The notes: generated by a model from the sequence alone, not told the origin. A stretch of DNA of 64,000 nucleotides from a virus (IMGVR_UViG_3300034159_000051:1-64000), one strand, 5' to 3'; positions 44,477 to 63,545 are shown, counted from the stretch's first letter. Translations and numbers: made by a program.

Positions 44477-44811
44477 GACATCGCGCTCCTGGGCGGAACG
44501 CGCTGGATCGTATTATCGAGCCCAGAGCTTTTTGCGTTGGCGATAGAGTTGATCACGGCTCTCATAAATCGGCCCAGCGTATTTCCAGCCGCGGCACCGT
44601 CAGGCTCCGACGCTGCGATCAAGGCGCCGGACGCAAGGGCTAAAGCCGCAAGGGCCTCATCCTGCGAGAAAAAGACCTCCTGCTCCTTTGAATCCCCAAT
44701 TGTCACAAGCTTAAAGATCCCGAGGGCGAGCTTATTGGCCCGTTCGTTTTTCTCATCGCAGGCGACTCTCTCGCTGCAGGCGTCGCACTTGATTTCGCAC
44801 ATATCTGCCAT
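44473..44811 (-). CDS. Hypothetical protein
   Basis: Start preceded by GGGGATCAG. Confidence 0.65.
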   Translation of the reverse strand: MADMCEIKCDACSERVACDEKNERANKLALGIFKLVTIGDSKEQEVFFSQDEALAALALASGALIAASEPDGAAAGNTLGRFMRAVINSIANAKSSGLDNTIQRVPPRSAMS

Positions 44812-44825
44812 CTGATCCCCTTTCT

Positions 44826-45791
44826 TTAGTCCGCCACTATGGCGCTAAGAGCCGCGGCGACTTGTCCGCCGTGGTCTGCTCTATTGTCATCATACCGCAG
44901 AATCGTTTTTATATCCAAGTGTCTAGAGAACTTTCCAACCTTTCTGAAATCGCCGCCAAAAACATCGAGCGCCGCGGTGATGGCGCTATGGCGCAGGCCG
45001 TGCGGACGCGCAATGATGCCGATCTCCTCGCCAAGCTTCCGCACGATCTTATGGATGGCGGACCCGCTGAGTCTTGTATGCGTCGGAGGCGTCGAGAGGC
45101 TGATAAAGAGCGGAGCGTCCGCCGCATCGTCGCCGCGCAGGGCGAGCCACGCCGCCAGGGCGTCGCGTACAACCCCGGCCGGGAGCGTCAATGTCTCGCG
45201 CTCGCTTCGCCCCTTTCCCATTATCGAAAGCGTTCCGTTGAGGTCGACATGCCCGACATTGAGGCTGGCGATCTCCCCTCTCCGAAGCCCGAGGCCAAAA
45301 CCCAACAGCAGAATCGCGACGTCGCGCGCCGCCTTGTTCGGGTTCTTGTGCTCGCCAGCCGCCTTGATCATTTTTCGGACGTTGGCGACCCCAGGCCCCC
45401 GCGTATCGCGGTAGGCTTGCGTAGCCTCCCCCTTGATCTCCAGGCGCAGCTCTGTCGCCCCGAACCCGCGAGCGGCCGTCACGAATGAATTCAGCGCGAA
45501 CAGGCTGCGATTGATCGAGGATGGCGACAAGCCCTCCTTGAGTTTATTCTGCCTCCATGCAGCTACTACGGCGCGGGCTTGGCCATCATCAAGAGCAAGA
45601 AACCACCGGATCGCATCAGCAAGATCGCCAGCCTTTACAAAGGAAGCAAACGCCTTCAATTCATATTTGTAAGCGCGCTTCGTATTGTCCGAGGGGAACC
45701 CGGCCAGCCATAGGCCGAGCGCCGTTTCGGCGGTAATATCCTGGGTAAGCGTCAGGCTACGCCCTTGGCTTATCTCAATTAGATCGTTCAC
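44826..45791 (-). CDS. Tyrosine recombinase/integrase
   Basis: GLRRGEI, GKG, HGLRHS, SRH.D..T..RY catalytic motifs. Confidence 0.93.
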   Translation of the reverse strand: MNDLIEISQGRSLTLTQDITAETALGLWLAGFPSDNTKRAYKYELKAFASFVKAGDLADAIRWFLALDDGQARAVVAAWRQNKLKEGLSPSSINRSLFALNSFVTAARGFGATELRLEIKGEATQAYRDTRGPGVANVRKMIKAAGEHKNPNKAARDVAILLLGFGLGLRRGEIASLNVGHVDLNGTLSIMGKGRSERETLTLPAGVVRDALAAWLALRGDDAADAPLFISLSTPPTHTRLSGSAIHKIVRKLGEEIGIIARPHGLRHSAITAALDVFGGDFRKVGKFSRHLDIKTILRYDDNRADHGGQVAAALSAIVAD

Positions 45792-46078
45792 TATTTTACC
45801 TCGATAAAGGCTTCGGACTGCTTCACCAGCTTGTCGACGGCCGCGCCGATCTTGCCGGGTTCATTCTGGCAGAGGACGATGCAAACATCCTGATCCTCGC
45901 GGTTGATGATCTTGCCCGCTGTAAGGCTGACTTGGCCGGTCCTTAGCACCTCGCATTCGTACCGGCCCCCGCTGTCGATAAAACGCTGGGCCAAGGCCTC
46001 GATGGCAGCGGGCCGATGAATGACGCGCGGCTCGCGGCGACCGTTTGGAAGGAAGAACTGCGTAAAGTTGATTCCCAT
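45791..46078 (-). CDS. Hypothetical protein
   Basis: Start re-called after the motif at 46081. Confidence 0.7.
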   Translation of the reverse strand: MGINFTQFFLPNGRREPRVIHRPAAIEALAQRFIDSGGRYECEVLRTGQVSLTAGKIINREDQDVCIVLCQNEPGKIGAAVDKLVKQSEAFIEVK

Positions 46079-46097
46079 TGTCTGATCCCTCAAAGAG

Positions 46098-46514
46098 TTA
46101 GAGTGCTTGATCAACATAGTAGAAGACAAAATACGGATAGCCGCTGGATGCGTTACACCCTTCCGAGATAGCCAAGCCCGTTGTTGGCTTCCCAAAGTAT
46201 GCTGACAGGAATTTGTTCATATCGGCTTTCGTAAATTGGTCAATGCGCTTCCTCGGGACGCTGGCGCACGCTTTCTCCCATGCCGCATTATCCCAGCCGC
46301 GCATCCGATCATCGTAGGCGGCTTGCACGCCTTTGGCCTTTAGCTTGTCGTGCGGGACGGTGCGGAGAATGAAGTGATCCGAGTAGCTGTAGGGATGCGC
46401 TTCTTTGGTCCGCTTTTCTCGTGCCCCCCATTCCGTCCAGTCGTAACGATCGAAAGCCTCCTCTTCCAATCCAAAAGCCGACATTCTGTCCAGTATCTTG
46501 TGTTTCGAAATCAT
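46098..46514 (-). CDS. Hypothetical phage protein
   Basis: Start after the motif at 46516; HPYSY and N.SSGYPY motifs. Confidence 0.7.
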   Translation of the reverse strand: MISKHKILDRMSAFGLEEEAFDRYDWTEWGAREKRTKEAHPYSYSDHFILRTVPHDKLKAKGVQAAYDDRMRGWDNAAWEKACASVPRKRIDQFTKADMNKFLSAYFGKPTTGLAISEGCNASSGYPYFVFYYVDQAL

Positions 46515-46533
46515 GTCTGATCCCTCAAAAGAG

Positions 46534-46749
46534 TTAGAACTTAACCGGCTCGCGGTGGCCGCGCTCGATCCAATGCGTCGGAGCGTAGCCCTTGTCTTCC
46601 GCAATCTGCTTGGCCGCAGGCAACGACATGGCTCCATCAAGCTCGATAAGCTCCACGGCCTCTGCGACTTGCTTGCGCAGGTAGAACGGCGCTCGCGTGA
46701 ACTCCCTATCGAAGACGATCATCTCTTCTGGAAAGCCTGGAATTGGCAT
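46534..46749 (-). CDS. Hypothetical protein
   Basis: Start after the motif at 46752. Confidence 0.65.
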   Translation of the reverse strand: MPIPGFPEEMIVFDREFTRAPFYLRKQVAEAVELIELDGAMSLPAAKQIAEDKGYAPTHWIERGHREPVKF

Positions 46750-46804
46750 CGTCTGATCCCCTTGGTTTATATCTCGCGCGCCCGGCCAGTTTCAATTGCG
46801 CCGT

Positions 46805-47107
46805 TCATTCGCCTCTCCCCGCAGCCGGAACCCAGATTTCAAATTCAGGATCAACCATGCGGACGAATCGAACGATGTCTCCAAATTTGTAGAAATGTTG
46901 GGCCTTAAGCCGCACTCCAAGACGGAGGGAGGCTTCTTGTCTCCTTTCCGGGCCAAGGGCCGAGCAGACAAGCTCGCTGGCGATCTCCCCGTTCCAGCTC
47001 CCATCGTCGTTGATATCGACGCATAGCGCCCACGGCGATTCTCCCGGCAGGCTGACCTTGAAAAACTCACCGACTACCGGATTCCTTAGCTCTCCCGGTG
47101 GCGCCAT
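46805..47107 (-). CDS. Hypothetical protein
   Basis: Start re-called after the variant motif at 47110. Confidence 0.6.
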   Translation of the reverse strand: MAPPGELRNPVVGEFFKVSLPGESPWALCVDINDDGSWNGEIASELVCSALGPERRQEASLRLGVRLKAQHFYKFGDIVRFVRMVDPEFEIWVPAAGRGE

Positions 47108-47324
47108 GATTTGATCCCTTCTCTGACCTCTTCTTGATTGCGGCCTTCGCGGCGGCGCGCGCCTTTTCCCGTGCGCCGTAGGCGATGCAGCCGCTGCTGA
47201 GCTTCTTGCCGTCCGGAAAATACACCTCCCAGAGGTAACCCTTTGTAAGCGGCGGCTCAGACCCCGGATGAAACGGCACGTTAATGACTTCAATCCGCGG
47301 TTTCTTCGGCGTCTCTTTATTCAC
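47067..47324 (-). CDS. Hypothetical protein
   Basis: GTG start after the motif at 47327. Confidence 0.6.
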   Translation of the reverse strand: MNKETPKKPRIEVINVPFHPGSEPPLTKGYLWEVYFPDGKKLSSGCIAYGAREKARAAAKAAIKKRSEKGSNHGATGRAKESGSR

Positions 47325-47337
47325 GATCTGATCCCCC

Positions 47338-47577
47338 TTAGTGAGTCACGACGCGTTCGTCTTGGCGATGATCATCAGGGGCAAGGTCTTCGCCGCCGCC
47401 GTCATCCTCATCGTCGAGTATGGTTTCGATGTCGATCCATTTTCCTATGAGGACAAGGGAGAGCATGCCCCATCCCGACTGAGAAAGCCAAGCAACCCCC
47501 AGCGCGATCACAATAATCCCGCCCAGGACCATCGCGTTGTTGCGATAGACGGCCAGCGTTTTTTCTTCGTTCATCAT
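47338..47577 (-). CDS. Small membrane protein
   Basis: Two hydrophobic segments, acidic tail. Confidence 0.6.
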   Translation of the reverse strand: MMNEEKTLAVYRNNAMVLGGIIVIALGVAWLSQSGWGMLSLVLIGKWIDIETILDDEDDGGGEDLAPDDHRQDERVVTH

Positions 47578-47780
47578 TGTTTAGGCTCCGCCTTATTATC
47601 GATTGCGTAAGCTGCAGCCAGCGCGGCTCGCATTTCTTCGAAGCTCCGCACGATGAACGGGTCGCTCCAGCTTCCTCCGGTTTCGCCGGGTCCGGTTTGC
47701 TCTATCGTGTCGCAGCCATACCATTTGAGCAATGCTGCTTCGATGGCTTCCTTTGACGGTTCCATGATCCCGACCTTCAT
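47574..47780 (-). CDS. Hypothetical protein
   Basis: Start after the motif at 47784. Confidence 0.6.
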   Translation of the reverse strand: MKVGIMEPSKEAIEAALLKWYGCDTIEQTGPGETGGSWSDPFIVRSFEEMRAALAAAYAIDNKAEPKQ

Positions 47781-47792
47781 AGTTCTGATCCC

Positions 47793-48068
47793 TTAGTAAA
47801 TGACTTTCCAGAGCTTATCGGGTCTTAGGTAGTTTGTTCCTCCGCTCATAAAGACGCCTACGAGCAGATCGCCCTCTTTCGTATCTCCGCCATGATAACG
47901 ACGACGGTGATCCGCCAGGACTGTGTCGGCGCGCTTGAAACAAGTCACGCGCTTTGAGTTGCAGGCGACAATATAGTCGATATCGGACCGCGCAGGGTCC
48001 GCTACGCTCTTAAGAATGACGCTATCATCTACCGCAAGGTTGTCTTCTGTGGCGTCTACGAGCTTCAT
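47793..48068 (-). CDS. Hypothetical protein
   Basis: GAGG RBS; stop abuts the next motif. Confidence 0.6.
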   Translation of the reverse strand: MKLVDATEDNLAVDDSVILKSVADPARSDIDYIVACNSKRVTCFKRADTVLADHRRRYHGGDTKEGDLLVGVFMSGGTNYLRPDKLWKVIY

Positions 48069-48080
48069 GGATTTGGCCTC

Positions 48081-48323
48081 TCACTCATCCAAAAATGGGT
48101 CGGCATCGGACGTCCACCCGGCGCCATCATAGACGTCGAGCATCTTGCCATAGCGGAAAAGAGCAACCGTTCGCGTCGGAATCGCATTCGCATTTCTTGC
48201 ATCGAACATCTCAATGGCGATTTGACGGGCGACGCGCTCATCGGTTCCGAGGTGGAACCCGTGTTTGAAAGACGAACCTTCAACGGGCTCGATTGAAAGA
48301 ACGAAAGGCTGGTCGCTTTTCAT
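48081..48323 (-). CDS. Hypothetical protein (first gene after a promoter)
   Basis: Start after the motif at 48327. Confidence 0.65.
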   Translation of the reverse strand: MKSDQPFVLSIEPVEGSSFKHGFHLGTDERVARQIAIEMFDARNANAIPTRTVALFRYGKMLDVYDGAGWTSDADPFLDE

Positions 48324-48343
48324 GGCTCTGATCCCCTATGAAT

Positions 48344-48372
48344 AATATAGCCGTTTTATGGTTATATAGCAA
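48344..48372 (-). promoter_or_regulatory. Sigma70-type promoter
   Basis: TTGCTA-N17-TATATT, followed 4 nt later by ATAGGGGATCAGA. Confidence 0.75.
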
Positions 48373-48583: not shown

Positions 48584-48789
48584 TCGTCTTCTACTTCAGC
48601 CAGGATCTCGGACAGCTCCGTCCCCTCGATCCGAGCGTAAGCAAGTTCGGCAAAGCGCCAGCAGGCGCGCTCTTGCGGGTGACGGGCCTTATCGAAGCGA
48701 TAGCCTTCTGGAACGAGATAGCCCTGAGCTGCGTAGAATTCGCGCGCCAGCTCATTCGCTTGCTTTAATATTTCTTCTGGGGTCTTCAT
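48580..48789 (-). CDS. Hypothetical phage protein
   Basis: LAR.FY...GY.VP.GYRF....HP.E..CW; GGAGG RBS. Confidence 0.65.
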   Translation of the reverse strand: MKTPEEILKQANELAREFYAAQGYLVPEGYRFDKARHPQERACWRFAELAYARIEGTELSEILAEVEDE

Positions 48790-49025
48790 GCTGCATCCTC
48801 CGTATCCCAATTGCGAGCGCGAGCTTGCGCTTTGTAGGCGCGATCTGCCTTGATCGAAAGCGCGGAATATTTCGGCTCGTTGCCTATTTCGTATTGTTCG
48901 CGGGCTTCCCAGAGAAGAGCGTCCGTCTCGCCTTCGCTCGCAAGCTCGGCGTTCAGCATTTCCCACCAAGCAACGAAGCTTAGCTTTTTCTTGGTGAGGG
49001 TCTTTTCCCGTTCTGTGAAGGCCAT
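48786..49025 (-). CDS. Hypothetical protein
   Basis: Start after the motif at 49029. Confidence 0.65.
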   Translation of the reverse strand: MAFTEREKTLTKKKLSFVAWWEMLNAELASEGETDALLWEAREQYEIGNEPKYSALSIKADRAYKAQARARNWDTEDAA

Positions 49026-49054
49026 GATTCTGATCCCTTTTCCGAGTTTTTAAT

Positions 49055-49264: not shown

Positions 49265-49265
49265 G

Positions 49266-49529
49266 TCAACGCGGCCTTGTTTCGGAAGTGAAGCCGATTG
49301 TGAACTGACGCCAGATCCACGCCTTTTGCTTGACGTCCCAGGCGAACCCTTCGTTTGGGTCATCCGGCATATTGACCTTGATCATGATCACGTTGCGGTA
49401 TTCGTTGATGGCTTGGCGCAGGCAGGTCTTGGTCTTGCGCTGGGTCCAGCCGAGGTGGAGGAAAAGCCCGCCCGGGCCACGAAGCGCCATCTCATATTTT
49501 GTCGTCTTGACTGATCCCATCATGGACAT
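49266..49529 (-). CDS. Hypothetical protein
   Basis: Start re-called after the variant GGGACCAGA at 49533. Confidence 0.55.
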   Translation of the reverse strand: MSMMGSVKTTKYEMALRGPGGLFLHLGWTQRKTKTCLRQAINEYRNVIMIKVNMPDDPNEGFAWDVKQKAWIWRQFTIGFTSETRPR

Positions 49530-49749
49530 GGTTCTGGTCCCTTGGTGGAGGGCGCTTAATGTGCGCCGCCTCGGCTTGCTCAAACTTGCGCTTTTCGCCT
49601 TCACGAATTAGGGCGCAGATTTTATCGTTGACCTCCGTTTCGATCCCGGCTGCTTCAAGCAAGCCGAGGATGTCATCTTCGAGTTGTGTTGTATCGCCGC
49701 ACTGCACATCGCAATGGCGGTCCCAGGCCTGAGAGGGACATGAGATCAT
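49492..49749 (-). CDS. Hypothetical protein
   Basis: ATGA overlap; reads through the junction repeat. Confidence 0.45.
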   Translation of the reverse strand: MISCPSQAWDRHCDVQCGDTTQLEDDILGLLEAAGIETEVNDKICALIREGEKRKFEQAEAAHIKRPPPRDQNHVHDGISQDDKI

Positions 49750-50111
49750 GACCGGGCCGCCTGTTTTCGCTGAAACCTAAGTTTGTCGAGTTCCCAGTAG
49801 GTTGGCATATCGTCATCAAGCGCCGGGGCGATATTCACGCGGACGGCTGAGTCGGCCGGCAGGCAGCGATTAGCCTCGGCCTCGGCTTCCTGCGGTGAAT
49901 CAAACAGTTGCGCGCGCGACCGGTCCGCCCAATAGGCGCCGCTCCGCTCCATCGATGGGAGCAGATAGATGTGGAACGGCTCTGGGATCTGTCCAGGATG
50001 GTTCGGCCCGCGAGCCGGACGGAAATCCGTGGTCGACATCGAACGAACGACCCATTTCTTCTGAAGAACTGCGCGGAGAGCTTTGATTCTTTCTTCGCGT
50101 GACTGTGTCAT
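49746..50111 (-). CDS. Hypothetical protein
   Basis: Motif at 50127 plus GAGGAA RBS. Confidence 0.65.
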   Translation of the reverse strand: MTQSREERIKALRAVLQKKWVVRSMSTTDFRPARGPNHPGQIPEPFHIYLLPSMERSGAYWADRSRAQLFDSPQEAEAEANRCLPADSAVRVNIAPALDDDMPTYWELDKLRFQRKQAARS

Positions 50112-50150
50112 CTCTATATTCCTCTATCTGATCCCTTGGTGGAGGTGCGC

Positions 50151-50387
50151 TTAGCGCGCCTCGATAACCTGCCAAAACTCCGAACGAGCGAAGTTCCAAT
50201 ATTTGGCCCTGTAGTCATGCTCTTGCATTAGAACACCTTCAAGGTGAGCAAAAGCATGATCATGGTCGGCCTTCTGCTCGATGGCTTTCATTGCGTGGGC
50301 TCGGCCAAGGTTACGCATGATGTTTTTGCAAGCGGTGCGATAGGCTGGGTTCTGTTCAAGTTCTGAAAGTTCTTCACGGAGCGCCAT
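50151..50387 (-). CDS. Hypothetical protein
   Basis: Start re-called; variant motif at 50402. Confidence 0.6.
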   Translation of the reverse strand: MALREELSELEQNPAYRTACKNIMRNLGRAHAMKAIEQKADHDHAFAHLEGVLMQEHDYRAKYWNFARSEFWQVIEAR

Positions 50388-50424
50388 TTGATTTGTTCCT
50401 ATCTGACCCCTTGAAGGAGGGCGC

Positions 50425-50709
50425 TTATCGCGCCACCTCGGCCTCGATGATTTCCTTACGAACGATGCGAACGCCTTCCTTTTTGTTCGCGCAGCTTTCG
50501 GAGGCTTGGTCGGCGGCGATGCGCGTGCTGGAAAATCCAGTCTTGAGGGCTTGTCGGTGCTGGCCCTTGAGGACGGCGCCGGTGATCGGATCAAAAGACC
50601 AAGGAATGTCGAGTTCGACGAGCCAGCCGTAACGAAGCGTGGCGTTTGTCGTCGTGCGCGAGATCGCCGATCCGTCTTCGAAGGTCACCGTGAGTTTCCG
50701 TTTTGCCAT
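50425..50709 (-). CDS. Hypothetical protein
   Basis: Variant motif at 50720. Confidence 0.65.
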   Translation of the reverse strand: MAKRKLTVTFEDGSAISRTTTNATLRYGWLVELDIPWSFDPITGAVLKGQHRQALKTGFSSTRIAADQASESCANKKEGVRIVRKEIIEAEVAR

Positions 50710-50744
50710 TTTCGTGCTTCCTGATCCCTGGGGGCGGCCGGCGC

Positions 50745-50933
50745 TTAGAGCGCCTCCACCAAATTCACCGTATCCATGACGCGGGTGTGCTGCTTCGCGT
50801 TCGGATCAAGGCACTTCACATCGGCCATCCAGCGCTCCTTGCTCCTGCGGGTGCTGAGCCAAGGGCCGTGAACGATTTCGTAGGATTTCCCGTTCAGCTT
50901 GTGTCTGTAAACTTTTCCAGCTTCGAGTTTCAT
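50745..50933 (-). CDS. Small SH3-like hypothetical protein (first gene after a promoter)
   Basis: GKVYRHK..GKSY.I; motif at 50949. Confidence 0.65.
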   Translation of the reverse strand: MKLEAGKVYRHKLNGKSYEIVHGPWLSTRRSKERWMADVKCLDPNAKQHTRVMDTVNLVEAL

Positions 50934-50966
50934 TTTCGTGTCCGTCTCTCTGATCCCTATGTCATA

Positions 50967-50995: not shown

Positions 50996-51047
50996 GAGAA
51001 AAACGGTTGCGATAATGCTAATTTAAACAACCGCTCAACCCTTCAGG

Positions 51048-54644: not shown

Positions 54645-54851
54645 TCATCGCGGACCGCCCTCGCCACCCTTTTTATGGAAGGCGCAGAGTATTATTTTTC
54701 CGATCTCGACGGTGACCCCTCCGAGGATGGCGCTGAACGCTAAACGCCAAAACCAGCCTGGGCTTTGATCGAAGCCGCCGGCGATATGGAGGGCGGACCC
54801 GACAACCATGGATGCGGCGAAAATAAAAATAGGATTTGATGTACGCATCAC
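54645..54851 (-). CDS. Small two-TM protein
   Basis: Two hydrophobic segments. Confidence 0.55.
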   Translation of the reverse strand: MMRTSNPIFIFAASMVVGSALHIAGGFDQSPGWFWRLAFSAILGGVTVEIGKIILCAFHKKGGEGGPR

Positions 54852-55051
54852 CCGTCACCTATCTTGCGTTCGATGCAATAATGGTCCGCGAACTCCTCTA
54901 TTGTGTGCTTGCCGTTCACGAGGCCGACGATATGGTCATGCAACTCTTTAAGCGCGTAGGCGTGCACGCCGCCATACATCTTGTCGCCGCGCTTGGCGGC
55001 GGACCCGGCGTTCTCGATCAGGCCCTTGAGGTTGACTTTCATGCCGCTCAT
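54848..55051 (-). CDS. Hypothetical protein
   Basis: Start re-called at the motif at 55051. Confidence 0.65.
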   Translation of the reverse strand: MSGMKVNLKGLIENAGSAAKRGDKMYGGVHAYALKELHDHIVGLVNGKHTIEEFADHYCIERKIGDG

Positions 55052-55068
55052 CTGATCCCCTTCACTTT

Positions 55069-55458: not shown

Positions 55459-55770
55459 CTACACAAACATCTGCAACCAGTTGTCTTCTTCGTCGTAGCG
55501 GACGCCGCAGCGGATCAAGGTGATGATGTCCTCCTCAGTCGCCGCCTCGGCCAGCGCTTCAAGGTCGACGTCAAGCCCGATTTCATCGTGCCCGGCGTCG
55601 CCGACGATATCGCGGTTGCCCGGAACAAGCTTATCGAGCAAGAGGAAGGCGCACAGGTCCGGGCGCTTGCTTAGCGGGTTCTCGATGCGGCTGAATTCGA
55701 GGAGTTCTCCAGTCCCGTCGGTATCTGTTCCGTCGTATTTTTCGAAGGTCTTTTTTAGGTCGATCGCCAT
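55459..55770 (-). CDS. Conserved hypothetical phage protein
   Basis: S.RPDLCAFLLLD.LVP..D....A.HDEI...L.RCGVRYD....MFV; motif at 55774. Confidence 0.75.
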   Translation of the reverse strand: MAIDLKKTFEKYDGTDTDGTGELLEFSRIENPLSKRPDLCAFLLLDKLVPGNRDIVGDAGHDEIGLDVDLEALAEAATEEDIITLIRCGVRYDEEDNWLQMFV

Positions 55771-55798
55771 TAATCTGATCCCTTTCAGTTCTTAACTT

Positions 55799-56300: not shown

Positions 56301-56515
56301 TGCGCGCTCCTGACATGCAAAAGAGCGCAGGTTGCGCAGACATAGATGCGCCGCACGTTGCCGATCGCATAGAACGGTTGGCCGGCCGTCATCGGCTTAT
56401 GGCACGGCCCGTCGCATATCTCTCCGGCCCTAGCCGTAAAATCGTCGACCTTCATGGCGTCCACCTGGACCGACTCTTGCGTCGTCGCCTGGCTTATTAT
56501 GGTTCGATCAGCCAT
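56297..56515 (-). CDS. Small zinc-finger-like protein
   Basis: CDGPC...CATC; GGAG RBS. Confidence 0.55.
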   Translation of the reverse strand: MADRTIISQATTQESVQVDAMKVDDFTARAGEICDGPCHKPMTAGQPFYAIGNVRRIYVCATCALLHVRSAQ

Positions 56516-56714
56516 TTGCAAGTTTCTCCAGAAATTCAGCAAGTTTTTGGAGATCCCCCGCCGTGATCTCGATAAGGCGCATGCCACCGTTTTGGTCTGG
56601 CGCGGCGCGGGAGATGAGGGACTCCCTCGTGGGCATGGTTTTGGTCGCGGAAGCCATTTCGATGAATGGCCTCGCAACAATAGGGTCGTAGATATTCATA
56701 GGCTTATCGGACAT
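56508..56714 (-). CDS. Hypothetical protein
   Basis: Start re-called at AAGGAGGGATCAG-ATG. Confidence 0.65.
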   Translation of the reverse strand: MSDKPMNIYDPIVARPFIEMASATKTMPTRESLISRAAPDQNGGMRLIEITAGDLQKLAEFLEKLANG

Positions 56715-56725
56715 CTGATCCCTCC

Positions 56726-57211
56726 TTATGCGCCAGTCATCGCCGGGGCGAGTTTGTCTGCAAACATGGTTTTTGGACGCGGCGGCGGTGCGCTGCACGC
56801 TATCAGGTACATAAAACAAAGGATTGAAACGTCGGACAAGGTCAAGGCGAAGCCATCCATTCTCCAGCCGAGAAGCGAATGCGTCGGGACAAAAATAGAT
56901 AGGATAGTCCACCAAAAGAGCCTAGAAAAAACAGAATGATACCGCTCTGGATTGGCTGATGTCCCGGAGTGTCTTTCCGCTTGCATGGAGCGGATATAAA
57001 GATAAAAGACAAGCATGGCCGATATTCCAAGCCCAAAAGGTCTGTAATCAAAGATCATGCATGACGCATATACAGAACCGATGTACACCGCCAACGTCAT
57101 GCGCGCTTGCTGGAAGCAGGATAGACCAGTCCACCATTCCAGACGCCATGAAACAGGCTCGACGACATTATCGAGGAACCATATATCGAATTTTGTAATC
57201 TTGCCGAACAT
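56726..57211 (-). CDS. Multi-TM membrane protein
   Basis: About four hydrophobic segments; motif at 57218. Confidence 0.65.
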   Translation of the reverse strand: MFGKITKFDIWFLDNVVEPVSWRLEWWTGLSCFQQARMTLAVYIGSVYASCMIFDYRPFGLGISAMLVFYLYIRSMQAERHSGTSANPERYHSVFSRLFWWTILSIFVPTHSLLGWRMDGFALTLSDVSILCFMYLIACSAPPPRPKTMFADKLAPAMTGA

Positions 57212-57824
57212 CTTCTTTCTGATCCCTTTCCTTTTTCGGCTTCTTTGGGAAGCCTCTCGACTTGATGGCGACCTTCGCGCCATCGCTTTTCTGAAAGCCC
57301 CTCGACTTTATGGGCGCCTTCTTCCTGCCCTTTCCGGTTTCGCCGCGGATGCGCTTGCCCTTGGCTATGATGGCGAAGTCTTTTTTATCTTTTTCTAGAG
57401 AGCAAGGGTTGCAACACCAGTACTCCTGATTTTCCGGCCGGTCCGGGTCTTCCCCGGGGGAGCACAGTTCTCGCGCCTTGACATGCTCTCTGCGGAGATT
57501 GTTTCGCGCTAATATTCGGCCACAGCCGCACCCGCACCGGATGTGAGCGCCGTGATAAAACAATGCGTCAAGGGTTTGCGCCTCCGTCGGCGCCCGGCCG
57601 CGCAAGCCGGGTTTCAGGCATCGTTCGCGGACAAAAGCTTGGATGGCTCTATCGAATTGCGTATCCGTTATCGATAGCCTTGATCCACACCCACACCCGC
57701 AGAAGGCAGTCATCCTTTGCCGGAAAAGGATAATAAGCGCCGTCGACACATTGATCGGTTTGCGCTTCGGCGCTTTGGCGACGATGAGCGGCGGCTTCAT
57801 CTTCGGAAGCGCAAGATCGCTCAT
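57168..57824 (-). CDS. HNH-like nuclease with duplicated CGCGC motif
   Basis: Two CGCGC motifs, EH...D..EN....C..PC..K, AKGKR and SRGF tail. Confidence 0.65.
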   Translation of the reverse strand: MSDLALPKMKPPLIVAKAPKRKPINVSTALIILFRQRMTAFCGCGCGSRLSITDTQFDRAIQAFVRERCLKPGLRGRAPTEAQTLDALFYHGAHIRCGCGCGRILARNNLRREHVKARELCSPGEDPDRPENQEYWCCNPCSLEKDKKDFAIIAKGKRIRGETGKGRKKAPIKSRGFQKSDGAKVAIKSRGFPKKPKKERDQKEDVRQDYKIRYMVPR

Positions 57825-58090
57825 GTGCCGCAAACCCAAATAGGCTTCTCGGTCCGGACCGCTTCCGGCTCCGTCCGATCAAAATAGGCGTATTCGCCTT
57901 CGAAGCGAATGGTGCGCCCATGTTCGGAAACCTCAGCCTTAAGGTAGGTCTCTGTGTAGCCGGCCGCGGCGAGCAGCTCGCGAACCATCGCAGCCGGGAT
58001 CTGCGTCGTAACGCAGGTGGACGGCAGCTCCTTGGCGAGCTTCACCAAATCCTCTACGGAATCGATATTCATCTCAAAAGCGATCTGCAT
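57821..58090 (-). CDS. Hypothetical protein
   Basis: Start re-called; AGGA RBS. Confidence 0.55.
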   Translation of the reverse strand: MQIAFEMNIDSVEDLVKLAKELPSTCVTTQIPAAMVRELLAAAGYTETYLKAEVSEHGRTIRFEGEYAYFDRTEPEAVRTEKPIWVCGT

Positions 58091-59060
58091 TGTGCATCCT
58101 ATCGAAAATCGGCGGCGTCTGCGCCCAAGTCCGGCCATCGAGCAAAGGCATGGATATTTTCTTGCCGCCTTCGAGGCGCTGTTTCAAGAAAAACGGCGTG
58201 GACGAGGATACGCATTGATCACGAAGGTCTCGCTCCCACTCGATCTTCATCGGGCGGGCGAACGGGCCGCTTTCGCCGCCGCAGATCGCCCAATCGAGGC
58301 GCGGCTGATCCTGGCTTTCATCGAGCCAATCATTAAGCGTGACGCCTTCCAGGTAAGGCCGCAGGTTGACCTCGCCGAGCATCGGCTCGACGGAGACGCC
58401 GCGGACGGCGGCCGGCGTCCGAAGCAGGTGCGGGATATGCTCATCGGCGGCGCGCTGGTCCTCGGCCGACACCATCAGAACGACGTTCTGAAGCGGCCAC
58501 GGCGTTGCGTTGCCGAGCGGTTGCGGGAGCGCGGCAATTTTCCATCGTTCCGAAGCGACGCATTCTGACGTCGAAAGCCCGTCAGTCCTGTTATTCGGGT
58601 TATTGGAAAGATGATCCAACATCCGTGCGGAGCGCTTCGTCAGAACGATAAAGACGTGCTGCTGGCATAGCGCCATCACAGCGAAAATTTTATCGATCCA
58701 GCTGTCCGGCACGAAGAAGCCGAACAGATCCGTCATCGAGCACACAAAGATGACCCGGCCGCGTTTCCAGCGGATCGGCTGCGTCAGCATCTTTTCATCA
58801 AGGAAGAGACGAGACTCGCCGTTGCGGTAGCCCTTTTTCTCCTCGCAATAAAGATTGCCCGGCTTGAACTCAAGGCCGGTCCCGAGGCGCATATTCATGT
58901 TCTCGGCATAGCAGAATCGGCACCCCTCGCTGACGTGCTCGCAATGCCAGCCGATGCGCTCTTTGCCGCTGCCGTCGTTCTGGATTTCCCAGAACTTCGC
59001 GCGGATCGGCGTCCAGGTCGACCCGCCGTTTGTCCACTCGATTTTGGTTCTCGCCGCCAT
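58074..59060 (-). CDS. Phage Gp37/Gp68 (DUF5131) family protein
   Basis: TKIEWT, C..VSEGC.FCYA, FVCSMTDLF, LTKR, S.EP.LG, GGESGP.ARPM. Confidence 0.92.
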   Translation of the reverse strand: MAARTKIEWTNGGSTWTPIRAKFWEIQNDGSGKERIGWHCEHVSEGCRFCYAENMNMRLGTGLEFKPGNLYCEEKKGYRNGESRLFLDEKMLTQPIRWKRGRVIFVCSMTDLFGFFVPDSWIDKIFAVMALCQQHVFIVLTKRSARMLDHLSNNPNNRTDGLSTSECVASERWKIAALPQPLGNATPWPLQNVVLMVSAEDQRAADEHIPHLLRTPAAVRGVSVEPMLGEVNLRPYLEGVTLNDWLDESQDQPRLDWAICGGESGPFARPMKIEWERDLRDQCVSSSTPFFLKQRLEGGKKISMPLLDGRTWAQTPPIFDRMHNADRF

Positions 59061-59455
59061 CACGCCGCCTTTTGTTCAAGAGGTGTGCCATTAGGGATGA
59101 TGTCTTCGACGTCGAAGCGATACCCCTTGATCAGCCGCTTGAATGCAACCGAGGACGTCATGCGGAGCGTCTGTCGCCCGAAGGCGTCGCCTTGCGGGCT
59201 AATCCATTCGCGACGAAAGAATGTGCGCTCATGGCACCCTTTCGGGCGGTAGCGATCAACAACCGTGATCCGGCATTTTCCCATGCCGTGGGCATATGTG
59301 AAAGAACCTCCATTGCCTTCATTTTCGGTGATGGCGCCGGGCTTCCATTCGCCCTTCGGCCCCTCAAGAAAAGGAGGGTCATACGGCTTCCAGATGAACG
59401 GGTATTCAAATTCGTAGATTTCCGCCGCCTCGGCCTCTTCCGTCTGTTTTTTCAT
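59060..59455 (-). CDS. Hypothetical phage protein
   Basis: Start re-called after the motif at 59459. Confidence 0.7.
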   Translation of the reverse strand: MKKQTEEAEAAEIYEFEYPFIWKPYDPPFLEGPKGEWKPGAITENEGNGGSFTYAHGMGKCRITVVDRYRPKGCHERTFFRREWISPQGDAFGRQTLRMTSSVAFKRLIKGYRFDVEDIIPNGTPLEQKAA

Positions 59456-59509
59456 CGATCTGATCCCTTTTTGCTTTGATTCGAAACTATACCACGCCAA
59501 AGCCGAAGC

Positions 59510-60480: not shown

Positions 60481-60483
60481 GGA

Positions 60484-60681
60484 TTACTCCACAATCGGAT
60501 CGAGGTGCTTGATAGCGAGCATGATCCAGATCGTCCAGGCGATGGCATACGCCATCGGCCTAAAGACATAGGTTGCAAGCCCCTCCTTTGCTTGGGCGTA
60601 ATCTCGGTCGAGTTGCTCGCGCTCGGCGTCGGCGCGGAGCTTTTCGTTCTCCGGCGAACGCCAGTTGTCGTTATAGGTCAT
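60484..60681 (-). CDS. Small membrane protein
   Basis: C-terminal hydrophobic helix. Confidence 0.55.
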   Translation of the reverse strand: MTYNDNWRSPENEKLRADAEREQLDRDYAQAKEGLATYVFRPMAYAIAWTIWIMLAIKHLDPIVE

Positions 60682-60944
60682 TCTTTGTCCACAAGAGCAG
60701 TTAGAGCAGCGATCTCATGCAGCGCCGGCAGCACCGGCCCCAGCTGCTTGACGATCTTCCCGACGGCAAAAGCGACCTGCATCCGATGCCTGCGAACGTC
60801 ATCCGGGAAATCGACATGTTTTTGCTCCCCGCGCAGTTCAAGGAACTCTTTGTAATCCTGGACGATTTGCCGGAACCCGTCCAAAAGCTCCTTGTGACTG
60901 AACAGCGGCGCCGCCGCGGTTTTTGGCCCGTTATCTTCAGCCAT
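60678..60944 (-). CDS. Hypothetical protein
   Basis: GGAAGGA RBS; start re-called. Confidence 0.6.
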   Translation of the reverse strand: MAEDNGPKTAAAPLFSHKELLDGFRQIVQDYKEFLELRGEQKHVDFPDDVRRHRMQVAFAVGKIVKQLGPVLPALHEIAALTALVDKE

Positions 60945-61299
60945 TCGATATGTCCTTCCTCTGTCCAAATCGCCCGTGCAGAGCGATGATTTTATCCAAA
61001 GTCACGGCGCGCATCTCCCGCGAGTTCCATTTTTCGGCGTTGCCGCTGCGCTTGGCGGTTTGATCCAGGTCCGACCAGATGTCGCGCAGAAGCTCGCGGG
61101 CGGAGACGGCCGCCGCCCGGCAGCGCGCAATATTCGCCCCCTGCTCAAGGATGGTGGCGTGCAGGGCCTCCTTTTGCGCCTGTAGCGTTCGGACCTGAGC
61201 TTCAAGGGAGTCGACCAGTAAAACCGCATCCGCCGCCCTGTTGCCCGGCAGGCTCCATCCGGCCGCCTTTCGAAGCCATGTCGTAATTTCGCCGATCAT
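60937..61299 (-). CDS. Coiled-coil hypothetical protein
   Basis: GAGGGG RBS. Confidence 0.6.
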   Translation of the reverse strand: MIGEITTWLRKAAGWSLPGNRAADAVLLVDSLEAQVRTLQAQKEALHATILEQGANIARCRAAAVSARELLRDIWSDLDQTAKRSGNAEKWNSREMRAVTLDKIIALHGRFGQRKDISNG

Positions 61300-61664
61300 G
61301 CCGTCCCCTCGATTCTTCTCTTAATCGAATCAATATTCACCTTTAGCCACCTCAGCGTGCGCAGCGTGTCAAGTAGCCCCCGAAGCCGGAACTCGGCGTC
61401 GCCCGGCCCCATTGATCCGGCCTCCACCTTGTCGCGGTAGCAGTCCTCTATGCACTCAAAGACGATCCGGACAGATTGTATCTGATGGTCGATATTTGGA
61501 TTCTGACTTAGCCCCGGCTCGATCCATCGAGGCGCATACGCCTCGATATGATAGGGCTCGCCTTTCCGCCGCGTCTTACGGCCGACGAGCGGATCCTTGG
61601 GTGGATGGGGCGGCCCCTGGACAGGCCCCATCGCCCTCCTTTTTTGCCGGTTGCTCCGCGCCAT
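61296..61664 (-). CDS. Hypothetical protein
   Basis: Coupled ORF. Confidence 0.55.
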   Translation of the reverse strand: MARSNRQKRRAMGPVQGPPHPPKDPLVGRKTRRKGEPYHIEAYAPRWIEPGLSQNPNIDHQIQSVRIVFECIEDCYRDKVEAGSMGPGDAEFRLRGLLDTLRTLRWLKVNIDSIKRRIEGTA

Positions 61665-61666
61665 GG

Positions 61667-62950
61667 TCAGAACTTGATGCAGAGCGGTTCGATCCGGCCG
61701 TCCAAAATCGCCTGGACGATGTTCGCCGCCTTCGCCTTGCTGATCCTGCCAGCATCCGCCACGCCAGCGATTACAGCGTCGATGATCGCAGTGCGATGCA
61801 GCACGTTCGCTTGGCGCTCGGCCTCTAGGCGGTCTTGGGTGGCGAGAAAGGCGAGGCGGGCCTGCTCGGCGTCTTCAGCCTTCCGGCGCTCCTCTGCCGC
61901 CGCCAGTTCGGCGGCCTCTTCGCGCTCGCGCTGGATGCGTTTCTCAAGCTCTTGCTTCTTGAATTCTTCCATGATGGCGTGCGTTTCAAGGCAAGCCGCA
62001 ATGTCCTTGCGGGCTTCGGCCATCAGCTCGTCGTAGCGCGGACGGAATTCCTGCCAGTCGCGCTCATGCGCCGCGACCGCATCGAACCCGCTGGCAAGAT
62101 ACTGAACGCGCTCCAATGAATTGTAAGGAGAGGTAATGTCTCTCACCATGCCGCACAGCGCGGCGAGCGCGGCCTCGTGACCGGCGATCCGCTTGCCTTC
62201 GGCCTGGATGAGCGCTTCCGCCTGCTCGGCCTCCTGGCGCTTCCTGGCGTCCTCCTCGGCTGCACGCTTGACACGCTCGGCGCGGAACGCTTCCAGCTCG
62301 GCCCGGTCCGCCTCATCCCGCGTAAGTTTATCAATACTTTCCTTTAGAGACTTGATCGTAAAGACCTTGGCCTCGACGCGGTCGACATCCCCATTGATCG
62401 CCTCCACGGTCGCCAGCCGGGCGCGGAGCGTCGCGCTGGTGTCGTCGGCGCTGATCATGCGGGCGGCGTCGAGAAAATCCAGGTCTTCCTTGATTTTCGC
62501 TTCGCGCTTGGCTTCCTCAGCCTTCCAGACGTCAAGGTCTTTCCGAACCCGCTTAACCAGCGCGTCTATATCCTCAAGGATATCCTTTTTATCATCGTTC
62601 ACGGCTTTGGTCTTATCGCGATACTCTTTCGTCAGCTGCTTCGCCGCCTCCTCGATTGGGGACTTGCGCAGCGTCAACTGCTGGTAAGCGAAGGAGGTGA
62701 TCTCGTCGCGCTCGGCCTTCGTTCCGACGGTAAGCTTCCGCGCCTCAAAATCCTTGACGCGGTCCTTCAGCTCAGCCAGGAAAGCGGCGCGGATTTCCGC
62801 TCTTATCAGAACCGACGAAGGCCTGCCATTGACATAGTCAATGGCGGACGATTTCAGCTCCAAGACGGCGATTTCCTGGCCGGTTGCGATCTTCGTCAGC
62901 CCCGTCTCTTCGGAAGCCTCAGCCACATTTGGCATAGTCGAATTGTCCAT
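61667..62950 (-). CDS. Long coiled-coil protein of the recombination module
   Basis: R.EI.S.AY, D.L...VRK.L..W, Glu/Ala/Arg-rich; start after the motif at 62956. Confidence 0.7.
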   Translation of the reverse strand: MDNSTMPNVAEASEETGLTKIATGQEIAVLELKSSAIDYVNGRPSSVLIRAEIRAAFLAELKDRVKDFEARKLTVGTKAERDEITSFAYQQLTLRKSPIEEAAKQLTKEYRDKTKAVNDDKKDILEDIDALVKRVRKDLDVWKAEEAKREAKIKEDLDFLDAARMISADDTSATLRARLATVEAINGDVDRVEAKVFTIKSLKESIDKLTRDEADRAELEAFRAERVKRAAEEDARKRQEAEQAEALIQAEGKRIAGHEAALAALCGMVRDITSPYNSLERVQYLASGFDAVAAHERDWQEFRPRYDELMAEARKDIAACLETHAIMEEFKKQELEKRIQREREEAAELAAAEERRKAEDAEQARLAFLATQDRLEAERQANVLHRTAIIDAVIAGVADAGRISKAKAANIVQAILDGRIEPLCIKF

Positions 62951-62970
62951 GATGATCTGATCCCTTTTGT

Positions 62971-63237
62971 TTACATCCTGTCTTTTTCGACGCGGGCGAT
63001 CCGCGACAGGATCTCCGGGACGCTTTCCCTGACTGCAACCGATTCCTCGGAGCCAAGAACATTGAGCCACGACTGATAATCATTTCGAAGCGTTGGCGTG
63101 TAGGAAACGATCGTATCGATCCGAATGATCGCGGAACGGTTATCCGCCAGCGTCAGGACGATGCTGCGCGTTTTGTAAAGCTCCGCCTCCATCATCGAAA
63201 GGACTTCCGCTGTGGTTGGAATAATCACGTCTTTCAT
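62971..63237 (-). CDS. Hypothetical protein
   Basis: Motif at 63241; V.ES..EI C-terminus. Confidence 0.65.
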   Translation of the reverse strand: MKDVIIPTTAEVLSMMEAELYKTRSIVLTLADNRSAIIRIDTIVSYTPTLRNDYQSWLNVLGSEESVAVRESVPEILSRIARVEKDRM

Positions 63238-63249
63238 CGATCTGATCCC

Positions 63250-63531
63250 TTATGCGCAGTCGCGAAGAATGTTGCAGATGGTCAGGCTGTCCCGACTTGG
63301 TTTCATTCGCCCGGACGGGCTATAAACATCTAGCTTCATGCCGACTGGTTTTTCGGCATCCTCGCGCCCAGCGAGCGCGGCCTCGTAGATGTCGAGAACT
63401 CGCTCCAATGCGAGCGTAGGATTGACGCGACTCATGCCGCCACGGCCGCGCGCCTCCTTAATGAAGTGGCGCAGTTCTCCGATGGAGATGTCTCCGCTTC
63501 TGGCGATGCGCTGCGCTTCTCGTTTATTCAT
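63250..63531 (-). CDS. Hypothetical protein
   Basis: Motif at 63535. Confidence 0.65.
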   Translation of the reverse strand: MNKREAQRIARSGDISIGELRHFIKEARGRGGMSRVNPTLALERVLDIYEAALAGREDAEKPVGMKLDVYSPSGRMKPSRDSLTICNILRDCA

Positions 63532-63545
63532 TCATCTGATCCCTT

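Follow-up and report, generated by a model that had tools for sequence, protein, structure and literature searches.

A proposed start-associated sequence at non-structural genes of an uncultured 129-kb peat phage

The phage genome and the copies of the motif

The window analysed here is the 64,000-nucleotide stretch IMGVR_UViG_3300034159_000051:1-64000, which is the first half of a virus record of 129,260 bp with terminal repeats. The record belongs to an uncultured 129-kb phage from peat, and its DNA occurs in two sequencing runs only, both of them peat DNA runs. In a Pfam scan of 70 phage proteins, most had no family at all. Baseplate and tail-lysozyme genes were present, as were an integrase gene and a gene for a CI-like repressor of the LexA/CI type (HTH_3 and Peptidase_S24). 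Because the genome encodes both an integrase and a CI-like repressor, the phage looks temperate. Pfam also recognised a GapR-like domain; such domains are linked with Alphaproteobacteria, and its presence hints at a non-actinobacterial host. The RNA-handling genes comprise Ro60/TROVE, an RlaP nucleotidyltransferase and an HD-domain protein next to a tRNA cluster.

The original prediction had reported 18 exact and 4 one-mismatch copies of a 9-mer in front of start codons, together with one further intragenic copy at 16175, and every one of these was recovered at its coordinates (Table 1). The + strand of the window contains the 9-mer TCTGATCCC, which reads GGGATCAGA on the - strand, 19 times: 18 times at 44811-63535 and once at 16175. 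Shuffled versions of the window contained a mean of 0.48 matches, and 19 was reached in 0 of 100 shuffles, in agreement with the claim that the copy number lies far above chance. Across the whole genome, there were 52 exact copies of GGGATCAGA, 44 on the - strand and 8 on the + strand, and about 12-15 one-mismatch copies. The motif had been assigned to about 22 genes of one genome arm; instead, it precedes about 55 genes in three non-structural blocks on both strands. The exact copy at 16175 is probably a chance copy. The one-mismatch copy at 33570 marks the sole motif-like start within the structural block, and its status as a true member is uncertain.

Table 1. Motif copies and associated genes, with spacing in nt between motif and start codon; exact copies read GGGATCAGA
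Feature	Coordinates	Strand	Spacing	Start	Gene or ORF	Remark
One-mismatch GGGATTAGA	33570..33578	+	8	ATG	33587-34477	late-block gene
Exact, orphan	16175..16183	-			16047-17504	antisense within late gene; without upstream AAA
Exact	44811..44819	-	-1	ATG	44473-44811, 112 aa	ATG overlaps last A
Exact	46081..46089	-	2	ATG	45791-46078, 95 aa
Exact	46516..46524	-	1	ATG	46098-46514, 138 aa
Exact	46752..46760	-	2	ATG	46534-46749, 71 aa
One-mismatch GGGATCAAA	47110..47118	-	2	ATG	46805-47107, 100 aa
Exact	47327..47335	-	2	GTG	47067-47324, 85 aa
Exact	47784..47792	-	3	ATG	47574-47780, 68 aa
Exact	48327..48335	-	3	ATG	48081-48323, 80 aa	promoter-like TTGCTA-17-TATATT, end 8 nt upstream
Exact	49029..49037	-	3	ATG	48786-49025, 79 aa
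One-mismatch GGGACCAGA	49533..49541	-	3	ATG	49266-49529, 87 aa	TAAGCGCCCTCCACCAA upstream
Exact	50127..50135	-	15		49746-50111, 121 aa	GAGGA between; TAAGCGCCCTCCACCAA repeat upstream
One-mismatch GGGGTCAGA	50402..50410	-	14		50151-50387, 78 aa	GGA between; TAAGCGCCCTCCACCAA repeat upstream
One-mismatch GGGATCAGG	50720..50728	-	10		50425-50709, 94 aa
Exact	50949..50957	-	15		50745-50933, 62 aa	GGA between; promoter-like TTGCCA-17-TATATT immediately upstream
Exact	55051..55059	-	-1		54848-55051, 67 aa
Exact	55774..55782	-	3		55459-55770, 103 aa	strong 14-bp hairpin upstream
Exact	56714..56722	-	-1		56508-56714, 68 aa
Exact	57218..57226	-	6	ATG	ORF 56726-57211, 161 aa
Exact	59459..59467	-	3		59060-59455, 131 aa	upstream of DUF5131 gene
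Exact	62956..62964	-	5		61667-62950, 427 aa
Exact	63241..63249	-	3		62971-63237, 88 aa
Exact	63535..63543	-	3		63250-63531, 93 aa
Integrase gene	44826-45791
DUF5131 gene	58074-59063					downstream of motif gene 59060-59455
Repressor gene	67948-68541					HTH_3 + Peptidase_S24

A discrete, gene-oriented motif at the starts of unrelated non-structural genes

The conserved unit is longer than the 9-mer. It spans 9-12 letters and reads AAA-GGGATCAGA, with an A at positions -3, -2 and -1 in 37, 40 and 41 of the 52 exact copies, respectively, and its ATCAGA half is almost as invariant as the GGG. The motif is all-or-none: gene starts that lack it differ from it by at least three mismatches, except for four with two. 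Just one paralogous pair was present among the motif genes, which are otherwise unrelated. Upstream of -3, no position was conserved at a fixed distance among the 52 exact copies. No common k-mer or structure was detected in front of the 69 motif-like copies either; the one exception was a local repeat, TAAGCGCCCTCCACCAA, with 3-5 copies at 49.5-50.7 kb. Promoter-like sites upstream of the motif lie at variable distances, and no promoter signature goes with it at a constant position.

Counting by strand and distance over the full genome bore out the start association and strict gene orientation that had been proposed. In total, 48 of the 52 exact copies are start-adjacent, in gene orientation and with a spacing of -1 to 16 nt (the ORF that follows is 40 aa or longer in 46 cases and has 27 and 39 aa in the other two), and 51 of the 52 are co-oriented with the local genes, the copy at 16175 being the only antisense one. 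Among the four exact copies away from starts, those at 70602 and 118037 lie within or beside the regions that separate divergent genes, and one of these two is matched by a ribosome-binding-site copy 65 nt away, with which it makes a perfect 10-bp inverted pair.

The gene and start calls used here are our own and crude, and the starts of the motif genes were picked with knowledge of the motif; on these calls, the spacing was 5 nt or less in 44 of the 55 motif genes, with a mode of 3, and ATG was the start codon in 51 of the 55. In 11 of the 55, the motif lies 7-19 nt upstream, and a separate GGA or GGAG stands nearer the ATG in the cases read. The separate GGA noted previously between motif and ATG at 50127, 50402, 50720 and 50949 is indeed there. 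Of the 24 motif genes whose upstream gap measured 40 nt or more (or that had none), 19 still had a spacing of 5 nt or less; therefore, the motif tracks the start codon and is not simply squeezed there by short gaps.

With our own gene calls, the motif was found at 54 of 145 genes in the non-structural blocks vs. 1 of the 55 genes that make up the structural/packaging block (Fisher p = 3e-8), and when only genes preceded by a gap of 10 nt or more were counted, the corresponding values were 48 of 90 and 1 of 28. It is rare at genes that overlap and are translationally coupled (5 of 47), and its sites mark the borders between small, unrelated genes without known function.

Ribosome pairing and likeness to known systems

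Like a Shine-Dalgarno sequence, the motif is purine-rich, stands at a suitable distance before the start codon and has a predicted pairing with the 3' tail of 16S rRNA. With a generic tail sequence, which may not be that of the host, AGGGAUC gave a predicted duplex of -8.6 kcal/mol with 7 base pairs and one bulged A, and the median pairing energy of motif genes was -8.9, compared with -6.3 to -6.4 in other gene classes. This pairing is not special, as 8% of composition-matched shuffles paired equally well with the tail. Moreover, the stretch of the tail involved, GAUC-A-CCU with its bulge, is not the one that a Shine-Dalgarno sequence uses, and the predicted pairing does not account for the AGA tail of the motif or for the AAA. 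The motif further differs from a Shine-Dalgarno sequence in being all-or-none rather than graded, in having an invariant non-pairing tail and in serving one gene class only. The earlier view that it is more than a Shine-Dalgarno sequence is supported by its discreteness, by the near-invariant ATCAGA and by the 11 motifs at 7-19 nt. Initiation regions with the motif are also less folded (median MFE -7.1 vs. -10.0 and -9.9; p = 6e-5 and 0.002).

At positions -20 to -4, GGAG was found in 2 of 54 motif genes. The proposal that late genes use AGGAG holds loosely, in that GGAG, GAGG or AGGA occurs there in only 22 of 55 late-block genes, and GGAG in 14 of 55, on crude start calls. Pairing of the motif with the 5' end of 16S rRNA had been suggested as well; it is energetically possible, but in the mature 30S subunit that stretch lies hidden within helices 1 and 2, and that part of the suggestion found no support.

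The comparison with the start-associated sequences (SAS) of cluster K mycobacteriophages turned out to be apt. The SAS consensus is GGGATAGGAGCCC in cluster K and GGGAAAGGACCCC in cluster EF Microbacterium phages, and the available text of the sources still calls its function unknown in 2024-2025 (PMC3203893, PMC7302621, PMC11373665, PMC12699233). As far as that text describes them, SAS are, like the motif, short and asymmetric, present in many copies per genome (at least about 10), located a few nucleotides upstream of starts, nearly all in a single orientation and confined to non-structural genes, with ATG preferred and the genes unrelated; in both cases, conservation exceeds what 16S pairing accounts for. 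All three sequences start with GGGA, and cluster K and the motif share GGGAT, which is all that the motif has in common with the cluster K consensus. The motif otherwise differs in sequence from the SAS described, lacking the AGGAG core and the 13-bp consensus (its core is 9-12 nt vs. 13), and it is more abundant, with 52 exact copies and about 55 genes vs. 10-19 sites per genome. In the same descriptions, about half of the SAS sites have an upstream ESAS, an imperfect 17-bp inverted repeat, and no such repeat was found upstream of the 69 motif-like copies. The phage also differs from those carrying SAS in its 129-kb genome, its baseplate and tail-lysozyme genes and its origin from peat.

A regulatory element or a plain initiation signal

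The first alternative to be weighed acts on DNA. A phage repressor-type protein might bind an asymmetric 12-bp site in double-stranded DNA, as at the stoperators of cluster A mycobacteriophages, sites in promoters and between genes at which a monomeric immunity repressor halts transcription in an orientation-dependent manner. According to the available text of PMC9283540, these L5 repressor sites are asymmetric, about 13 bp long and multicopy, occupy short intergenic spaces, follow the direction of transcription and are found throughout the genome of a temperate phage. The motif shares these hallmarks up to the last, with 51 of 52 copies transcription-oriented; the integrase and repressor genes and the two orphan copies near divergent genes, one with its inverted pair, also fit. 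However, the start codon and not the gap sets the position of the motif, as the 19 of 24 long-gap genes indicate, the GGG has the spacing of a Shine-Dalgarno sequence, with a second GGA or GGAG where the motif is farther off in the cases read, and the structural block is without the motif, whereas L5 sites are described in that text as genome-wide and with no tie to start codons. We therefore consider repressor binding unlikely. The only repressor recognised among the phage proteins is the HTH_3 and S24 one, and no monomeric L5-type repressor was identified among them. Repressors of this LexA/CI type usually bind palindromes as dimers.

At the RNA level, a sequence-specific endoribonuclease of phage or host might cut the motif, so that early mRNAs are inactivated or matured together. 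T4 RegB cuts GGAG in early ribosome-binding sites, and T4 RegA and RegB exert post-transcriptional control over many early genes through ribosome-binding-site sequence. The motif resembles their sites in lying at the ribosome-binding site of many genes, and its class specificity, strict RNA-sense orientation and nine highly invariant letters would suit a cleavage signal, as would the Ro60/TROVE, RlaP and HD-domain genes. T4 targets are, however, short or degenerate (GGAG, AU-rich), with no fixed 9-12-mer. Six-frame family scans of the phage revealed no CsrA, RegA, RegB, MazF/PemK, S21, cold-shock domain or sigma-70 region 2, with zero matches to PF01818 or PF10715 at E <= 1 for RegA/RegB; the search for a CsrA-like phage gene advised in the original prediction thus returned nothing. 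No link between Ro60 and the motif was found, and cleavage appears the least probable of these explanations. It is also improbable, though less so, that the motif is a plain preferred Shine-Dalgarno sequence with its spacer, kept uniform because strong initiation is favoured or passed along as a border sequence when gene cassettes recombine, for which PeSL cassettes of T4-type phages, as far as their available description goes, offer a parallel. The pairing energies, the less structured initiation regions, the location at boundaries of small unrelated genes and three start-proximal copies of the identical 9-mer in an unrelated 37%-GC phage fragment all favour it. Such a signal would nevertheless be graded, in contrast to the sharp fall observed here from exact copies to starts with two mismatches; the AGA tail of the motif is unpaired with the rRNA tail, the motif is kept upstream of a second, nearer Shine-Dalgarno sequence in the cases read, and the structural genes do not use it, although phage and host are the same. 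In addition, 12 bp would seem short for homologous recombination.

On balance, and with somewhat better than even confidence, we favour the explanation that the motif is a start-associated sequence that acts in the RNA, as a ribosome-binding element specific to one gene class. The sequence shows where the motif lies, how it is oriented, which gene class carries it, that its genes are not paralogues and that its copies are discrete; that it acts on RNA, pairs with 16S rRNA and has a trans factor is what we infer. The motif would act within the mRNA, where the ribosome binds, and would belong to non-structural genes that initiate translation independently and not via overlap with the upstream gene. 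Its AGGGAUC part may be the equivalent of a Shine-Dalgarno sequence, at a usual distance of 0-5 nt from the start codon. Because the 9-12 letters are near-invariant, all-or-none and kept despite a second GGA or GGAG, a reader more specific than the anti-Shine-Dalgarno sequence probably also recognises the motif. The likeliest reader would be an RNA-binding factor encoded by phage or host, which could raise or shut off translation of the whole class apart from the structural genes. More tentatively, and with rather less confidence than in the element itself, the 12-mer may be the operator of one dedicated reader, a phage protein or small RNA that homology does not yet reveal, that switches the translation of about 55 unrelated genes together. 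If so, about a quarter of the genome would be controlled together, it would be, to our knowledge, the largest single-site translational regulon described in any phage, and it would offer a tractable key to the function of start-associated sequences.

A further mark of SAS is that related phages keep them, in front of genes of different families. The motif was absent from more distant relatives (helicase about 50% identical), and the searches found no close relatives beyond a single contig. This nearest relative, 4.1 kb long with a portal 74% identical, carries one exact copy, GAAAGGGATCAGA, with 4 nt between it and the ATG of an ORF of 88 aa.

Distribution of the motif among gene classes

The complete virus record (G000), of which the window covers bases 1-64000, has a length of 129,260 bp with direct terminal repeats, and crude gene calling by codon log-odds and greedy selection gave 200 genes in one structural and three non-structural blocks, which are listed in the table together with the other features. 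With its integrase and repressor genes, this 129-kb phage with terminal repeats looks temperate from its sequence. Rfam at the gathering threshold recovered six tRNAs and nothing else.

Features of the phage genome. Coordinates are those of G000 unless the window is named; L116, L117 and L118 are pieces of G000, and the gene content of the blocks comes from family scans.
Feature	Coordinates	Strand	Content
Structural/packaging ('late') block	118-129 kb continuing through 1-43 kb	+	preQ0-pathway genes, terminase, portal, major head protein, baseplate J, tail lysozyme
Non-structural block	43.3-68.5 kb	-	integrase, MT-A70 methylase, DUF5131, ERF, CI-like repressor
Non-structural block	68.8-83 kb	+	Rha, DnaD-like, primase/helicase, GapR-like, AAA ATPase
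Non-structural block	84-118 kb	-	six tRNAs, RlaP, HD, Ro60/TROVE, SSB, FtsK-like, a methyltransferase
Tyrosine integrase	window 44826-45791
Motif copies with shared upstream unit	window 49533-50427	-	3-5 copies share TAAGCGC(C/A)CCTCC..CAA
Repressor	67948-68541		HTH_3 and Peptidase_S24
Inverted pair	70525-70534 and 70600-70609 (L116:6525-6609)		between divergent genes; + strand copy without start codon
GapR-like DNA-binding domain	78455-79153
Repeated hairpin element	84206-84519 (L117:206-221 and 504-519)		direct repeat AACCCTTTGCCGGGCC, each with partner CCCGGCGAT.. about 30 nt downstream; in 1.4-kb non-coding gap adjoining tRNA-Arg(TCT)
RNA-handling neighbourhood	86420-91209 (L117:2420-7209)	-	RlaP-type nucleotidyltransferase, HD-domain protein, five tRNA genes, then 546-aa Ro60/TROVE
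27-codon ORF	117792-117893	-	motif and separate GGAG before ORF; strongly hydrophobic peptide
preQ0 pathway, complete-looking	119652-122604 (L118:15652-18604)	+	QueC, GTP cyclohydrolase I, PTPS/QueD, radical-SAM QueE-like

An exact match search of the window for TCTGATCCC found 19 + strand matches, 18 of them at the sites that the original prediction had assigned to exact copies and the other at 16175, while dinucleotide-preserving shuffles of the window gave a mean of 0.48 matches and none of 100 shuffles reached 19. The four predicted one-mismatch copies (47110, 49533, 50402 and 50720) were also recovered, and all 22 sites (18 exact and 4 one-mismatch) read as GGGATCAGA or nearly so on the - strand, directly before an ATG or GTG. 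When the motif was counted by strand and distance to start across the whole genome, as the original prediction had proposed, 52 exact copies were found, 44 on the - strand and 8 on the + strand, along with a further 43 one-mismatch sites, the majority of which lay away from starts. A start codon opening at least 40 codons was present at -1 to 16 nt from 46 of the 52 exact copies, a count that omits 16175 because its 42-codon TTG frame runs antisense inside a late gene. Two further copies stand before short ORFs, one hydrophobic with 27 aa and the other with 39 aa, which brings the total at starts to 48 of 52. The motif is thus real, strongly non-random and start-associated.

The earlier view that the motif marks about 22 genes of one genome arm did not hold. 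Copies were present in all three non-structural blocks, on both strands and always in the orientation of the genes, and were missing from the + strand structural block, indicating that the motif is a feature of a gene class and not of an arm. An equal frequency before late genes, the outcome named beforehand as counting against a regulon, was not seen: a motif-like copy preceded 54 of the 145 non-structural-block genes and 1 of the 55 structural-block genes (Fisher p = 2.8e-8), and among genes with an upstream gap of at least 10 nt the corresponding counts were 48/90 and 1/28 (p = 6e-7). Within the non-structural class, the motif was found before 31 of 44 genes with a gap of 10-60 nt and before 5 of 47 genes overlapping their upstream neighbour. 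These counts suggested that the motif is the usual signal of non-structural genes that are initiated independently. The 55 motif genes formed a discrete class; the best upstream match of a non-motif gene differed from the motif at 2 positions in only 4 genes and at 3 or more in every other gene. ATG was the start codon in 51 of the 55 motif genes, compared with 113 of the 145 others. Gene duplication was rejected as the source of the repeats, since only one of the 11 related pairs that all-against-all BLASTP found in the 200 proteins joins two motif genes.

Anatomy of the motif and its surroundings

In the alignment of the 52 exact copies, A occupied positions -3, -2 and -1 in 37, 40 and 41 copies, respectively, and no conserved column was found farther upstream than -3; part of the upstream A-richness is due to TAA stop codons of the preceding gene, as seen in the site contexts. 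Every repeat family in the 43-64 kb region was centred on the motif with weakly similar flanks, except for a local 3-copy extension of the repeat at 49.5-50.4 kb. In the upstream unit shared there, a small GCGC hairpin encloses the stop codon of the preceding gene, and the CCTCC could pair with the downstream GGA or GAGG.

The spacing between motif and start codon was -1 nt in 6, 0 nt in 2, 1 nt in 4, 2 nt in 10, 3 nt in 18, 4 nt in 2, 5 nt in 2 and 7-19 nt in 11 of the 55 motif genes, values that carry some circularity because starts near the motif were chosen with knowledge of it, which does not affect the copy counts. Short gaps do not explain this closeness to the start codon: of the 24 motif genes whose upstream gap reached 40 nt or that lacked an upstream neighbour, 19 still had a spacing of at most 5 nt. 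At the long-spacing sites inspected (e.g. 50127, 50402, 50949, 101384 and 114242, as well as 117885 before a short ORF), the ATG was preceded at 7-10 nt by a GGA or GGAG distinct from the motif. The 27-codon ORF, which falls below the 40-aa floor of the ORF lists, probably encodes a small membrane protein.

Four exact copies were orphans (16175, 65278, 70602 and 118037). The copy at 118037 lies within codons 6-9 of the gene 118017-118664, and that at 70602 makes up, together with the ribosome-binding-site copy of a divergent gene 65 nt apart, a perfect 10-bp inverted pair. Such a pair might fold in RNA as a hairpin that hides the ribosome-binding site, or serve as a paired site in DNA.

Candidate readers of the motif

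Pairing with rRNA was evaluated with ViennaRNA against a generic 16S 3' tail, which may differ from that of the host; AGG-GAUC was predicted to pair with GAUC-A-CCU through seven pairs and one bulged A at -8.6 kcal/mol. The best upstream duplex had a median of -8.9 for motif genes, -6.4 for other non-structural genes and -6.3 for late-block genes without the motif. Pairing of the 12-mer, AAA plus the 9-mer, with this tail is nothing out of the ordinary: among 5000 shuffled versions, 8.1% paired equally well, and AGA and AAA are left unexplained. Predicted folding of the -30 to +30 region was weaker at motif-gene starts, with a median of -7.1 (n=54) vs -10.0 (n=42) and -9.9 (n=28) in the two comparisons (p = 6e-5 and 0.002). 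By hand count, 7 of 12 start-associated single-mismatch variants were A>G or C>T, a wobble-type bias that is suggestive of RNA pairing and not significant.

Other partners were also considered. The proposed pairing with the 16S 5' end was reproduced as a predicted duplex of -10.9 kcal/mol, but was set aside because this stretch is buried in the mature 30S subunit. In the six phage tRNAs, only acceptor or T-arm stretches paired with the motif (-5.4 to -10.9 kcal/mol). The suggested small antisense RNA was rejected: long non-coding gaps contained just one additional 9-mer resembling the complement of the motif, at 84261 beside tRNA-Arg; it is part of the repeated hairpin element, and chance alone predicts one. 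A promoter reading was likewise rejected, since nothing is conserved upstream of -3 at a constant distance, sigma-70-like sites occur at variable distances and sigma-70 region 2 was not found. Nor did six-frame family scans of the genome find the CsrA-like gene suggested earlier, or S21, a cold-shock domain, RegA, RegB or PemK/MazF. Most of the 70 proteins scanned had no Pfam family, so the reader may be hidden among them. No Y RNA was found near Ro60/TROVE by Rfam at the gathering threshold.

Taken together, the closeness to the start codon whatever the length of the gap, a GGG placed at the distance of a Shine-Dalgarno, the second Shine-Dalgarno that takes over where the motif is farther from the start, the rarity of the motif in overlapping, coupled genes and the open predicted structure at motif-gene starts lead us to lean, with reserve, towards an RNA-level role in translation initiation. 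A plain Shine-Dalgarno would account for the predicted 16S duplex, but the discreteness of the class, its invariant non-pairing letters and its restriction to one gene class argue that the anti-Shine-Dalgarno is not the sole reader; this explanation, or that of a recombination boundary, is improbable. We therefore favour a start-associated sequence (SAS) read by an additional factor, which we infer and which, beyond the anti-Shine-Dalgarno, would read the motif at the starts of non-structural genes. The main rival is a DNA site resembling the stoperators, the repressor sites of cluster A mycobacteriophages, and it agrees with the temperate look of the phage and with the asymmetry and orientation rule that such sites have in common with the motif; because the position of the motif is tied to start codons and the motif is absent from the structural block, we regard it as unlikely. 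That the motif is a nuclease target seems less probable still.

Relatives and known start-associated sequences

Megablast against 50,697 phage records gave no match, and the phage collection held no close cultured relative; the protein at 3592-4713 had only partial, distant matches in that collection and no IMG/VR relative. Scans with the portal, helicase and DUF5131 revealed one near relative and otherwise identities of at most about 52%. This relative, a 4.1-kb IMG/VR contig with a 74% identical portal, carries a single exact copy, GAAAGGGATCAGA, 4 nt upstream of the ATG that opens an 88-aa ORF, where about 0.03 copies are expected by chance according to our own arithmetic. A scan of genome contigs gave one portal match (34%). 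Phages with helicases 46-52% identical lacked the motif before the helicase gene and elsewhere, apart from 1 copy in a complete 82.9-kb record, and DUF5131 neighbours at up to 42% identity had no motif. The 82.9-kb relative contains another 9-mer, GCCATAGCC, 35 times (strands combined) in a 21-kb locus, apparently as a tandem repeat.

A motif pattern scan of IMG/VR gave only single copies among the matches listed, and a two-copy scan yielded 37 loci, by rough estimate about the number that chance allows, most of them chance pairs or tandem repeats within coding sequence. An unrelated phage with 37% GC, represented by the IMG/VR fragments L237, L238 and L251, carries four exact GGGATCAGA copies within 2.6 kb; three of these are followed after 4-12 nt by the ATG of an ORF (59, 32 and 118 aa). 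We treat this as a curiosity. The 11-mer AAGGGATCAGA, present in 32 copies in the phage, occurred 0-7 times in each of 401 sampled Pseudomonadota genomes and at least once in 206, which is not informative on the true host. Among the sequencing runs listed, only two peat DNA runs, and no RNA run, contained the phage sequence.

The SAS of cluster K mycobacteriophages (GGGATAGGAGCCC) occur in 11-19 copies, typically 3-7 bp before non-structural start codons, in one orientation and mainly before ATG; their conservation exceeds 16S pairing, and about half have an extended SAS (ESAS), an imperfect 17-bp inverted repeat (PMC3203893). In cluster EF Microbacterium phages, GGGAAAGGACCCC is present ten times (PMC7302621). 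First described in 2011, SAS were still without an assigned role in papers from 2024 and 2025, which call it ill-defined or unverified and read the ESAS as promoter-containing (PMC11373665, PMC12699233). The likeness to cluster K SAS noted in the original prediction was confirmed in position, orientation, gene class and start codon. In contrast, the peat-phage motif differs in sequence and lacks the canonical AGGAG core, has three to five times more copies in each genome and is without an ESAS partner: the regions preceding 69 motif-like copies showed no shared ESAS-like element. Of 504 papers matching the 9-mer in full text, the 20 listed did not deal with any phage motif; searches of the literature on SAS and on conserved motifs before start codons, supplementary site lists lying outside them, yielded no report of the sequence as start-associated. 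The motif is of the SAS type, exceeds every SAS found in print in copy number and differs from all of them in its core, and it widens the phenomenon to a large temperate-looking peat phage that, to judge from its GapR-like gene, may have a host outside the actinobacteria. Were a single factor to read it, the motif would provide a simple post-transcriptional switch separating early from late protein synthesis; it could also mark true start codons and gene classes when related uncultured phages are annotated.

The GapR-like domain hints at a host that we presume to be alphaproteobacterial, and the preQ0 pathway suggests that the phage DNA may carry 7-deazaguanine modification; no Pfam match was obtained for the 285-aa gene immediately preceding the pathway (118651-119508). 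Across the whole genome, GATC was observed 1040 times and GANTC 304 times, each with 483 expected from base composition. The reading GATCAGATC, shared by 13 - strand motif copies and one + strand site, places two GATC sites 5 bp apart.
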